Source: a phage
Sequence record: PZ452583.1
Reading direction: 5' to 3' (one strand)
DNA: 64,000 nucleotides
In this document: piece after piece, positions 34,862 to 37,750 of the stretch
Position numbering within the stretch: position 1 is the stretch's first letter
Layout of the letters: each line of letters begins with the position of its first letter
Translations under genes and position numbers: made by a program
The notes under the pieces: model-generated
What the model was told of the DNA's origin: nothing
What the model saw: only the letters and a program-made list of their open reading frames with translations
Database searches by the model: none

Positions 34862-35335
34862 TTATTTGATTTGTTTAGCAGACCAAATGCGGTCTTTAAT
34901 AATTTTTTGGATGTCTTCAACATACTCAAGAGAGTGAGCATGTGGGTTATCTTTGAAACTATAAGCACGAGCTAGCTTTTGGCCTTCAGTTTTGATTACT
35001 AAAAGCTCTTTAAGGATAGCTTCATATTTGGAGATAATTCCTTTAACAATATTTTTCTCTTGTGCGACTTTAGGATCTGCTTTAGGAGCAGGTTTACCTG
35101 AAGCCTTTGCAAAAGCAGCGCCAGTAGCAACTAAACTTTTCCAGGCCATACTAACAGCATTCCCCGTAAATCCTTCTGCTTTCATGTCGCGAGCAAATTG
35201 GAATCGTGATTCATCAGAAGCATCTTTATAGGAATATTTACCCGCTGCAATGGCTGCTTTTGCGACAGCTTGAATTTCGGTGCTAGACGCTTCATTTAAC
35301 ACCGCTTCATTTAAAAATTGAGCATATGATTTCAT
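34862..35335 (-). CDS. Internal-protein-like capsid-packaged protein, 157 aa, in a repeat-flanked cassette
   Basis: N-terminus MKSYAQFLNEA resembles the IP capsid-targeting sequence; own late promoter; near-identical terminator hairpins on both sides. Confidence 0.65.
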   Translation of the reverse strand: MKSYAQFLNEAVLNEASSTEIQAVAKAAIAAGKYSYKDASDESRFQFARDMKAEGFTGNAVSMAWKSLVATGAAFAKASGKPAPKADPKVAQEKNIVKGIISKYEAILKELLVIKTEGQKLARAYSFKDNPHAHSLEYVEDIQKIIKDRIWSAKQIK

Positions 35336-35371
35336 CTTATTTCCTGTTTTAATTTGTAGATTTAATATACT

Positions 35372-35379
35372 TATTTATA
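35372..35379 (-). promoter_or_regulatory. Late promoter TATAAATA for the IP-like gene
   Basis: Exact TATAAATA on minus strand about 37 nt upstream of ATG 35335. Confidence 0.6.
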
Positions 35380-35380
35380 C

Positions 35381-35409
35381 TAAAAAGCCCCAACCTTTCG
35401 GCTGGGGCT
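35381..35409 (-). terminator. Rho-independent terminator (AGCCCCA-loop-UGGGGCU then UUUUU) upstream of the IP-like gene
   Basis: 7-bp stem and U-run read in sequence; near-identical to the 34825-34853 copy. Confidence 0.65.
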
Positions 35410-35439
35410 AAGCCTTGCGGCAACCTTGTCGGGGTTCCA

Positions 35440-35610
35440 CCTGCTAAGGCAAGTGTTTGTACGAAACGCCGGGATTCGAACCCGGTTATCAAGCAGTTGA
35501 CGCTACTCAATATTTTTAAAAGGCCATATCTCGACCATATCCGAACGTTCCGTCAAAAACGCTACTCGGCTTACGGCAAAGATATTTCCTCGAATCGATA
35601 ATTCGGTGCG
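35440..35610 (-). ncRNA. Candidate structured small RNA with a tRNA-like T-arm (possible counterpart of T4 stable RNAs rnaC/rnaD); boundaries approximate
   Basis: About 300 nt without an ORF; contains CCGGG-TTCGAAT-CCCGG followed by a 7-nt strand complementary to upstream AGAAACG; no canonical cloverleaf could be drawn. Confidence 0.3.
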
Positions 35611-35720
35611 CCGTTTCTGCTGTGATATAAGGGGACATTAACAAAACATAAAGATTTATTAATGCCAGTCCTTAAACAGGGAACATCAGTCCGACGACTT
35701 ACCGGTAGCGACCCGGTTTC

Positions 35721-36071
35721 TTAATATTCTTTTAAAGCATCAATCTGTTCACGGCGTTTACGCCATAAATCAATTGCTTCATACGCAGATTCAGCATTTC
35801 GAATTAGCCGGCATTTATGTAAAGACTTATGATTTTGATATTGTGTAGATAATGGAATTGTATCTAAAAGGTCTTTACGATCAAAGTATTCGTAACCATC
35901 TAAACCAAATGAACGATTTTTGAGAAATTGCCAATGGCCAAATTCATTTTCAACATAAACATAATCTGCATGCTGATAAAGTAAATTAATTACACGTTCA
36001 GAAATAACAGTATCATTATGATTAAAATAGAATGTTAAATCATGAACTACTAAATAAACATTACCTTTCAT
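35721..36071 (-). CDS. Hypothetical protein, 116 aa
   Basis: ATG verified; between tRNA-Arg and the candidate small RNA. Confidence 0.55.
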   Translation of the reverse strand: MKGNVYLVVHDLTFYFNHNDTVISERVINLLYQHADYVYVENEFGHWQFLKNRSFGLDGYEYFDRKDLLDTIPLSTQYQNHKSLHKCRLIRNAESAYEAIDLWRKRREQIDALKEY

Positions 36072-36089
36072 ATTTTCCTCACTTATAAT

Positions 36090-36165
36090 TGGTCGAGGCA
36101 GTAGGGATCGAACCTACGACCTAGGACTTAGAAGGTCCTTGCTCTTCCTTCTGAGCTATGCCCCG
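36090..36165 (-). tRNA. tRNA-Arg (anticodon TCT)
   Basis: Hand-folded cloverleaf, 76 nt, CCA encoded; anticodon loop CTTCTAA; T-loop GGTTCGATCC. Confidence 0.85.
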
Positions 36166-36169
36166 TAAT

Positions 36170-36245
36170 TGGGGTGACCGATGGGAGTCGAACCCATGAC
36201 TACGAGAATCACAATCTCGAGTTCTACCAACTGAACTACGGCCAC
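36170..36245 (-). tRNA. tRNA-His (anticodon GTG); no encoded G(-1)
   Basis: Hand-folded cloverleaf, 76 nt; anticodon loop TTGTGAT; CCA encoded. Confidence 0.8.
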
Positions 36246-36359
36246 ATTAATATCTACTCCAACAATCATGATGTCTTCACACGAAATTAAGAGAAGAGTG
36301 ATCAGTTAAACCCTTATAATCGCGTCAAGTAGATATTAATGTGACAGTTGTCACAAATT

Positions 36360-36434
36360 TGGCGGACGTGATAGGATTCGAACCTATAACCAATCGCTTA
36401 ACAGGCGATCGCTCTGCCATTGAGCTACACATCC
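36360..36434 (-). tRNA. tRNA-Asn (anticodon GTT)
   Basis: Hand-folded cloverleaf, 75 nt; anticodon loop CTGTTAA; CCA encoded. Confidence 0.8.
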
Positions 36435-36438
36435 AAAT

Positions 36439-36525
36439 TGGTGGGGAGTGGTGGAGTCGAACCACCCGAGTCGCAATGACAATGAATTTACAGTCCACAC
36501 CGCTACCTCTACGGGATAACTCCCC
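36439..36525 (-). tRNA. tRNA-Tyr (anticodon GTA), long variable arm
   Basis: 87 nt; acceptor GGGGAGT/ACTCCCC; anticodon loop CTGTAAA; CCA encoded. Confidence 0.75.
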
Positions 36526-36537
36526 TAATTCATAATT

Positions 36538-36612
36538 TGGTGGCCCTGGGTGGAATTGAACCACCATCTGGCGATTATGAGTCGCTTGCTTGAACCTTCC
36601 AGCTACAGGGCC
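36538..36612 (-). tRNA. tRNA with anticodon CAT (elongator Met, or Ile if lysidine-modified as in T4 tRNA-Ile)
   Basis: 75 nt; acceptor GGCCCTG/CAGGGCC; anticodon loop CTCATAA; CCA encoded. Confidence 0.75.
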
Positions 36613-36613
36613 T

Positions 36614-36689
36614 TGGTGCTGATTGACGGAATCGAACCGCCGACCTTCTCATTACAAGTGAGTTGCTCTACCTACTGAGCTAAATCAGC
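36614..36689 (-). tRNA. tRNA-Thr (anticodon TGT)
   Basis: 76 nt; anticodon loop CTTGTAA; CCA encoded. Confidence 0.85.
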
Positions 36690-36694
36690 AAAAC

Positions 36695-36784
36695 TGGCGG
36701 AGGCGATAGGATTTGAACCTATGAGTCGCCGGAGCGACTGCCGGTTTTCAAGACCGGTGCATTAAACCACTCTGCCACGCCTCC
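36695..36784 (-). tRNA. tRNA-Ser (anticodon TGA), long variable arm
   Basis: 90 nt; anticodon stem-loop CCGGT-CTTGAAA-ACCGG; CCA encoded. Confidence 0.85.
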
Positions 36785-36786
36785 AG

Positions 36787-36860
36787 TCTCCATACAAGGA
36801 TTTGAACCTTGGACCTCCTGATCCCAAATCAGGCGCTCTACCAAACTGAGCTACACGGAG
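36787..36860 (-). tRNA. tRNA-Pro (anticodon TGG); 3' CCA not encoded, 2 nt from tRNA-Ser
   Basis: 74 nt; anticodon loop TTTGGGA; Pro-Ser dimeric arrangement as in T4. Confidence 0.8.
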
Positions 36861-36870
36861 TAAATTAAAT

Positions 36871-36944
<74 letters not shown>

Positions 36945-36949
36945 AAATT

Positions 36950-37036
36950 TGGTGCGAGAAGTGGGACTCGAACCCACAAGGAAATCATTCCGCAGCATTT
37001 TAAGTGCTGTGCCTTTACCAATTTGACCATTCTCGC
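36950..37036 (-). tRNA. tRNA-Leu (anticodon TAA), long variable arm
   Basis: 87 nt; anticodon stem-loop CAGCA-CTTAAAA-TGCTG; CCA encoded. Confidence 0.85.
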
Positions 37037-37042
37037 GTTATA

Positions 37043-37651
37043 TTATTTATTACGTGAAAAAGACTGTTCTATCAATTCTGGACACTTTCGTTCTATCCAT
37101 TTTCTAGCTTTTTGTGGGCTTATACCTATTATTTTAGCAGCTTTACTAACCCATCCAAATTTAGAATAATCGATTTTAACTAATTCTTCGTAAATTTCAT
37201 TAGTTAAAATCTTTTCATTAATATTTACCAGTAAATGATATAATTTGTTATCATTAGCAATTTTAATGAATCTTTTATAGTTTCCGCCTTTACTTAAACC
37301 TAATGAAGTAATTGCAGATGATATAGTAGCCGAATTTAATAATGCGTTTAAAATTTCTTCATCACTAACATTATAACGCTTTTTATTATTTTTAATATTT
37401 TTACCAGCAAAAGTATCAGTTTGCGAATGACAGTTTGGACATAATAATCTTAAATTTGATTTAAGATGATTTTTGTTATTTCCATCAATATGGTCTAATT
37501 GCAGAACAATATGCTTATTTTGCCATTTTGAAATTTTACAAATTGCACACTCATATGGAAAAATATTTTCTTTTATTATTTTGTCTTTCAGCTTTCCTGT
37601 ACTAAAATTTGGATGTTTTCCTTCAAAAATTTCAGCTAATTTAGTATCCAT
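37043..37651 (-). mobile_element. HNH homing endonuclease, 202 aa, 7 nt upstream of tRNA-Leu
   Basis: HNH core CAICKISKWQNKHIVLQLDHIDGNNKNHLKSNLRLLCPNCH plus C-terminal helix-turn-helix-like region; ORF-track start is TTG at 37675, first ATG 37651. Confidence 0.8.
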
Positions 37652-37750
37652 AATATGATTCCCAATTATTAACAAAGGCTCTCAAATAAGAACCCTTGAT
37701 GATAGAGGGTATTAATCAGTGCGGTATGAGTTAATAATAACAAATAATTC

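Follow-up and report, generated by a model that had tools for sequence, protein, structure and literature searches.

The small stable RNAs of bacteriophage T4, rnaC (species 1, or species I, RNA) and rnaD (species 2, or species II, RNA), have been known since the 1970s. The acceptor/T-arm minihelix is a recognition element for RNase P, for 3′ trimming enzymes and for the CCA enzyme, and in tmRNA, YrlA, mascRNA and the tRNA-like structures of plant viruses an acceptor/T-arm module engages tRNA enzymes without decoding. T4 transcription runs through the whole tRNA cluster and stops after the species I gene (PMC2330249). Both rnaC and rnaD have been classed as late RNAs, and for T4 the accumulation of rnaC as a discrete stable RNA of about 140 nt has been reported, with a northern probe for RNAC (PMC9697503).

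Here we describe a locus at positions 35413-35720, minus strand, of a 64,000-nt stretch of phage DNA (PZ452583.1, referred to below as the window). An earlier note, made by reading the letters, had marked it as a candidate for a single tRNA-like stable RNA, comparable to T4 species 1 and 2, or for a tRNA remnant.

Identity and setting of the locus

The window is a Tequatrovirus (T4-like) genome. A blastn search with positions 35336-35720 matched 806 GenBank phage records, nearly all from Tequatrovirus and close relatives. The best match was Shigella phage ESH35 with 100% identity, and across hundreds of T4-like phages the interval is 88-100% identical. The annotated features under the matched stretch in T4 GT7, RB10 and RB68 are the ncRNA genes rnaC and rnaD, and the order tRNA-Arg, rnaD, rnaC, terminator agrees with that in records where the two genes are annotated. 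As judged from homology and synteny, the interval very probably holds the orthologues of T4 rnaD and then rnaC, on the minus strand at the 3′ end of the tRNA operon. These are exactly the genes with which the earlier note had compared its candidate, and the alignment with T4 rnaC and rnaD that it had proposed recovered both. The locus is a rediscovery of known genes, not a new element. It encodes two RNAs, where one had been envisaged, and the tRNA-like T-arm that was noticed belongs to rnaC only.

The coordinates of both genes were carried over by alignment from the T4, RB10 and RB68 annotations, so that their ends may be off by 1-2 nt. The rnaC orthologue (139 nt) lies at 35460..35598 on the minus strand, as placed by the T4 GT7, RB10 and RB68 annotations and the family profile; it differs from T4 rnaC at three of 139 aligned positions and is scored by an nhmmer profile of the rnaC family at 156 bits (E 9e-46). 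It shares with T4 rnaC its length, T-arm, acceptor strands and location between rnaD and the operon terminator. The rnaD orthologue (121 nt, minus strand, 35604..35724), placed by the RB68 and RB10 annotations, occupies the same position as in T4 and matches 736 phage records. It is 97-99% identical to rnaD of RB7 and RB51 and about 88% identical to that of T4; almost no variation is seen in the first 45 nt and the last 25 nt, the centre varies, and the 3′ terminus is CCG in place of the CCA of T4. The interval folds far better than shuffled sequences, with z-scores of -3.81 for rnaC, -2.44 for rnaD and -5.7 for the precursor; the minimum free energies (MFE) of rnaC and rnaD are -49.3 and -34.2 kcal/mol.

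Ten tRNA genes were found at 36090-37036 by ARAGORN and confirmed by Rfam. The last RNA gene of this operon is rnaC, located between rnaD and an intrinsic terminator. A conserved 3′ trailer (35410..35459, minus strand), for which the precursor fold predicts small hairpins such as CACUUGC-CUUA-GCAGGUG, leads into the terminator at 35386..35409, a 10-bp G+C-rich stem followed by a U run. This element had been read as the terminator of an internal-protein (IP) cassette. It lies on the minus strand, upstream of the gene for a 157-aa protein, and hence ends the tRNA-rnaD-rnaC transcript, in agreement with termination of the T4 cluster after the species I gene (PMC2330249). Between the terminator and the 157-aa gene the late-promoter consensus TATAAATA is found at 35379..35372.

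The surroundings of rnaC in the window differ from those in T4 by two genes, the 157-aa gene beyond the terminator and a 116-aa gene between tRNA-Arg and rnaD. The former (34862-35335, minus strand, phrog_2280) is present at this place in RB68 and G4507 and absent there in T4 and RB10; its N-terminus, MKSYAQFLNEA, resembles the capsid-targeting signal with which T4 internal proteins begin. The 116-aa ORF (35721-36071, minus strand, phrog_3355) is an insertion common to RB68 and T2, while tRNA-Arg and rnaD are adjacent in T4 and RB10; VR20 has a different ORF at this site. The UAA stop codon of the 116-aa ORF (35723..35721) falls within the annotated 5′ end of rnaD.

Two further differences were observed at the tRNA genes. 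Directly upstream of tRNA-Leu, an HNH homing-endonuclease gene (37043-37675, minus strand, phrog_14736, E 3e-123) occupies the site of tRNA-Gln in T4 and RB10, and ARAGORN found no tRNA-Gln anywhere in the window. A 114-nt spacer (36246-36359, minus strand) separates tRNA-Asn from tRNA-His; it contains the palindrome GUGACAACUGUCAC and a TTGACG motif, and neither a tRNA (ARAGORN) nor an Rfam match was detected in it. RB10 and RB68 lack tRNA-His, and in them tRNA-Asn is followed by tRNA-Arg within a few bases.

The interval had been described as free of credible ORFs, and this description held: only TTG-start ORFs of 20-53 aa are present, and they are unstable among relatives. The candidates are a 42-aa TTG-start ORF (35516..35644, minus strand), a 53-aa ORF (35349..35510, minus strand) and a 34-aa ORF (35497..35601, plus strand). 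The presence of such ORFs, and of "hypothetical protein" features over the homologous stretch in several GenBank records, could be taken to mean that one or more very small proteins are translated here from non-standard start codons. We consider this exceedingly improbable. Among close relatives the sense ORF changes its start codon, frame or end, or vanishes, and it spans the boundary between rnaD and rnaC; 1-nt indels occur in RB68, G4507 and one further sequence of our set (L015). Across the rnaC family there is no conserved ORF on either strand, and it is base-pairing rather than codons that shapes the substitutions in rnaC. Coding potential of the interval was rejected on these grounds, and with it the small protein gene with a non-standard start that had been named earlier as a finding that would speak against a stable RNA.

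Fold and covariation of rnaC

To obtain a comparative model, 28 distinct rnaC sequences were aligned by MAFFT with no structural input. They came from Tequatrovirus, Kagamiyamavirus, Kanagawavirus, Karamvirus, Moonvirus, Winklervirus, Tegunavirus, Marfavirus, Gelderlandvirus and unclassified Straboviridae; further BLAST matches fell on records labelled Mosigvirus, Dhakavirus and Gaprivervirus. Pattern scans of IMG/VR and JGI metagenomes gave mostly chance matches; after filtering by nhmmer only L029, L365 and the partial L070 were left as additional true homologues, and the diversity of rnaC was therefore taken from the GenBank phage collection. In a model of 49 pairs, 93.0% of the alignment cells form standard pairs, as against 37-43% when the partners are slid. 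Compensatory changes were found at 27 of the 49 pairs, a number reached by none of 500 shuffles. RNAfold applied to the window rnaC alone yielded the same four-way junction. Overall, the comparison supports a tRNA-like four-way junction for rnaC, with the topology of the tRNA cloverleaf, and the compensatory changes indicate that this structure is under selection. The term tRNA remnant, if taken to mean a decaying pseudogene, is thus the wrong description of rnaC.

In the model the acceptor 5′ strand CGAUUCG (35591..35597, minus strand) pairs with CGUUUCG (35468..35462), leaving two central U.U mismatches. The 3′ strand together with a discriminator-like U (35461) makes up 35461..35468 on the minus strand and is followed by ACA, not CCA. 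The third acceptor pair is G-C in 17 sequences and A-U in 11, the A-U form being that of the T4-like phages and the G-C form that of the others. The acceptor of Yersinia phage TG1 is CGGUCCG/CGGACUG, where seven standard pairs (six Watson-Crick and one G.U) can form and both U.U positions have become Watson-Crick pairs. Directly 5′ of the acceptor 3′ strand lies the T-arm CCGGG-UUCGAAU-CCCGG (35469..35485, minus strand), which can be read directly from the sequence and is exactly as had been claimed: CCGGG at 35485..35481, UUCGAAU at 35480..35474 and CCCGG at 35473..35469. Its stem is paired in 100% of the sequences, and the middle pair is G-C in 13, U-A in 13, A-U in one and U-G in one. In this model, as in tRNAs, the acceptor stem of rnaC stacks on the T-arm, and the T-loop is canonical.

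A 3-bp "D-stem", AGG/CCU, adjoins the acceptor stem, and a long irregular hairpin grows from it. The tip of this long arm (35545..35562, minus strand) consists of the stem GCGUUU/GAACGU and the loop UUGACG (35556..35551); compensatory changes were found at five of its six stem pairs. A 10-nt linker then precedes arm H2 (35488..35511, minus strand), which takes the position of the anticodon arm and has a 9-bp stem with compensatory changes at all nine pairs. H2 carries the loop CGUCAA (35502..35497), and two A residues separate it from the T-arm.

The loops UUGACG and CGUCAA are exact reverse complements and hold steady while both stems that support them covary freely. UUGACG is invariant except in TG1 (UUGAUG) and in Klebsiella phage P545 (UUGGCG). 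In both cases the other loop has changed with it, giving two independent double changes at different positions, UUGAUG/CAUCAA and UUGGCG/CGCCAA, and all six loop-loop pairs can form in each of the 28 sequences. The exact complementarity combined with this joint covariation, which comes from two lineages only, indicates that the two loops most likely kiss in a loop-loop tertiary contact. A second contact may form at the elbow, like G18-psi55 and G19-C56 in tRNA: the GG just 5′ of the CCU strand covaries with the T-loop at one position (G.U in 24 sequences, C-G in 4) and pairs invariably as G-C at the neighbouring one. This signal is the weaker of the two, since it reflects one or two events, in each of which the whole T-loop has changed.

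It had been stated earlier that a standard cloverleaf could not be folded, and ARAGORN indeed called no tRNA or tmRNA in the interval, and no tmRNA in the whole window. The Rfam covariance-model search that had been suggested returned nothing significant for the interval, even at a permissive threshold. RF00005 gave no match at E up to 10, and the best tRNA-type score was that of tRNA-Sec, 16.4 bits (E 2.8) against a gathering score of 47. The YrlA model (RF02553) had no match in 35300-36100 at E up to 10, its weak matches in the window falling on real tRNAs, and the mascRNA model matched only the 17-nt rnaC T-arm (E 9). Rfam 15 contains no family for either rnaC or rnaD.

The tRNA-Sec model aligns, at this low score, exactly with 35553..35461, and in the record of phage G4507 a 94-nt "tRNA-Lys(ttt)" spans the equivalent stretch. 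These observations could be explained if the 3′ 93 nt of rnaC were a degenerate class-II-like tRNA or pseudogene with the acceptor ACGGAACG/CGUUUCGU and with H2 as its long variable arm. An 8-bp acceptor pairing of this kind is indeed possible in T4-like sequences. However, the helix shows no compensatory change and one of its pairs is broken in 13 of 25 sequences; the acceptor cannot form at all in TG1, KaAlpha, KLB31 and P545. The tip stem of the long arm, where U.G gives way to U-A, accounts for the G/A variation in the 5′ strand of this acceptor, and, as stated above, neither ARAGORN nor RF00005 detects such a tRNA. With an acceptor helix that is broken in half of the sequences and never compensated, the 93-nt fold was rejected as very unlikely.

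The four-way junction of rnaC thus remains the model to be compared with described RNAs. Like a canonical tRNA, rnaC would have four arms that meet at a junction, an acceptor stem of 7 bp that runs on into a T-stem of 5 bp, and a T-loop UUCGAAU closed by a G-C pair, and its gene lies in a tRNA gene cluster. Unlike a canonical tRNA, it measures 139 nt, lacks a 7-nt anticodon loop, does not encode CCA, carries a hairpin of about 60 nt inserted in the equivalent of the D-loop and has the 10-nt linker between the D and anticodon arms. It differs from tmRNA in having no tag reading frame, and the kissing loop proposed between its D arm and anticodon arm is absent from tmRNA, YrlA, mascRNA and plant-virus tRNA-like structures.

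Two further sequence features of rnaC were noted. The duplicated 9-mer reported earlier, GAGTAGCGT, is present at 35567..35559 and 35508..35500. We considered the duplicated GAGUAGCGU as a structural repeat and rejected it: its copies stand in different hairpin registers, and it is absent in TG1, KaAlpha and P545. On the DNA level, the T-arm contains GGTTCGAATCC (35473-35483), which matches the 11-bp core GGTTCRANTCC of the site recognised by the homing endonuclease SegB in T4-type tRNA genes (PMC2330249), which would make rnaC a potential SegB-type target, as the neighbouring tRNA genes are.

rnaD and alternative pairing in the precursor

For rnaD, 21 distinct sequences were compared and a consensus was computed by RNAalifold. 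The 5′ 45 nt are almost invariant and the 3′ end, UCACAGCNGAAACGGCGCAC, is invariant, whereas the centre occurs in three unrelated types. The 5′ part contains the hairpin ACCGG-GUCGCUA-CCGGU (35701..35717, minus strand; consensus RCCGG-GUCGCUA-CCGGY), the closing pair of which covaries (A-U in 15 sequences, G-C in 5). AACCGGGU is common to this hairpin and to the rnaC T-arm, forming a direct repeat. Complementarity of 5 nt was also seen between CGCUA of the rnaD loop and UAGCG in rnaC, which is too short to be meaningful. A few covarying pairs were detected at the base of the variable centre. The 3′ segment AGAAACGGCGCAC (35606..35618, minus strand) holds both AGAAACG (35618..35612) and CGGCGCAC (35613..35606), the latter being the 3′ strand of a predicted long-range stem, GUCGUCG/CGGCG(C)AC, with GUCGUCG at 35698..35692. 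Every pair of this stem is invariant, so that covariation speaks neither for nor against it.

We also considered rnaD as a second tRNA-like RNA. It has no T-arm beside its 3′ end and matches no tRNA model. The terminal trinucleotide is CCG in the window, CCA in T4 and RB10, and CAG, CCU or CCC elsewhere, which means that CCA is no conserved feature. The possibility was rejected.

AGAAACG of rnaD had been put forward earlier as the 5′ partner of the 7-nt strand CGUUUCG that follows the T-arm. The complementarity is real, although it extends over six of seven positions and not all seven. It is part of an inverted repeat, 35463-35471 and 35609-35617, complementary at eight of nine positions, one half of which belongs to the T-stem and acceptor 3′ strand of rnaC and the other, GAAACGGCG, to the 3′ end of rnaD. 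As an acceptor partner, however, AGAAACG is misplaced: it lies in the 3′ end of rnaD, and the conserved partner is CGAUUCG at the 5′ end of rnaC. In T4-like phages both partners are invariant and comparison within this group favours neither; in the genera that lack rnaD, tRNAs border rnaC and AGAAACG is absent, yet rnaC retains its internal acceptor stem, which covaries. In the MFE structure of the precursor the 3′ strand of rnaC pairs with GAAACG of rnaD instead of with the 5′ end of rnaC, indicating that the fold may differ before processing. On this prediction, the helix between rnaD and rnaC may be an alternative conformation of the unprocessed precursor.

Occurrence in other phages and possible role

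The annotation of rnaC and rnaD is uneven. Both are annotated in T4, RB3, RB10, RB68 and others, and rnaC is unannotated or mis-annotated in nearly all non-Tequatrovirus records examined. In EcS1, KaAlpha, Kc304, Virsaitis27, fGh-Ecl04, Melville and ABTNLPp2, rnaC occupies about 150 nt left without annotation from one tRNA gene to the next. In EcS1, KaAlpha, Kc304, Melville and others it starts 3-5 nt past the CCA of the upstream tRNA, and in tRNA-cluster phages its 3′ end lies a few nucleotides before the next tRNA. Homologues were located at 1499-1652 in L004, 1500-1647 in L006, 397-545 in L023, 193-347 in L398 and L399 and 404-497 in L390 of our sequence set. Some records cover them with "hypothetical protein" features, and the "tRNA-Lys(ttt)" of G4507 lies over the 3′ part of rnaC. 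In P545 (Marfavirus; L388, 402-545) the acceptor stem is followed by U-CCA instead of U-ACA, and rnaC does not adjoin annotated tRNAs. Taken together, eleven named Tevenvirinae genera conserve rnaC in their tRNA clusters.

Some relatives, namely VR20 and TH44 (Gaprivervirus), CUA3 and IME08 (L026, L028, L027 and L393, in this order), keep rnaD and the trailer, and rnaC is absent from them or replaced by an ORF. The terminator is also kept in these four phages. In CUA3 and IME08 the junction GCACCGAA|CACUUGCC corresponds to a clean absence of the rnaC unit, and in VR20 a 384-nt ORF stands at the rnaC site. It follows that rnaC and rnaD are separable modules, and that rnaC is dispensable in the phages that keep rnaD without it.

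In T4-like phages rnaD and rnaC sit between the last tRNA and the terminator, and the precursor fold links the two. Together with the loss of rnaC in the relatives just described, this would agree with structures that act in cis only, as a 3′ processing and stabilising module of the tRNA operon transcript whose excised RNAs are inert by-products. We regard this as rather unlikely. In at least seven other genera rnaC is found, with its complete fold, in the interior of tRNA clusters instead of at the 3′ end. Loops that do not vary from genus to genus, combined with a covarying tertiary contact, exceed the needs of a processing spacer. Furthermore, mature RNAC accumulates late in T4 infection (PMC9697503).

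Action in trans by base-pairing has also been contemplated for these RNAs. Regulatory roles have been speculated upon (PMC12685909), and rnaC and rnaD have been named small regulatory RNAs (PMC9697503). When the T4-like phage BW1 was evolved experimentally, all lines that adapted to ECOR34 as host gained the same rnaD SNP (PMC12685909), a convergence that suggests a host-dependent function. That rnaC or rnaD is a regulatory sRNA pairing with host or phage mRNAs nevertheless seems to us quite unlikely. The most conserved unpaired hexamers of rnaC complement each other and so are not free seeds, no significant match to an Rfam sRNA was obtained, and no target has been reported (PMC3014915).

A role based on the tRNA-like fold of rnaC is the one we tentatively put forward. 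In such a scheme rnaD and rnaC would be cotranscribed with the tRNAs and cut out by host tRNA-maturation nucleases. Since rnaC offers the acceptor/T-arm minihelix by which tRNA-maturation enzymes recognise their RNAs, the host machinery would excise and stabilise it, and its compact fold would give it stability; the cuts that free tRNA-Arg and rnaC would release rnaD. With the 6-nt loop of its anticodon arm occupied by the kissing partner, rnaC is unlikely to decode or to be recognised by anticodon-loop nucleases, while the acceptor/T-arm half, and perhaps the elbow, would stay tRNA-like. Our guess, and it is a doubtful one, is that rnaC mimics a tRNA without decoding and occupies or titrates a host factor that binds tRNAs, for instance a processing enzyme or a tRNA-targeting defence. 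In its full form, a tRNA-derived cloverleaf in which the D-loop hairpin locks the anticodon-arm loop by a 6-bp kiss and which titrates such a factor, the proposal is possible but not likely.

Reading of the sequence alone recovered a real stable-RNA locus. In most deposited T4-like genomes rnaC and rnaD are unannotated or lie under spurious "hypothetical protein" or "tRNA-Lys" features. The covariation-backed model of rnaC offers concrete mutants, namely loop swaps and acceptor changes, with which its role may be approached.
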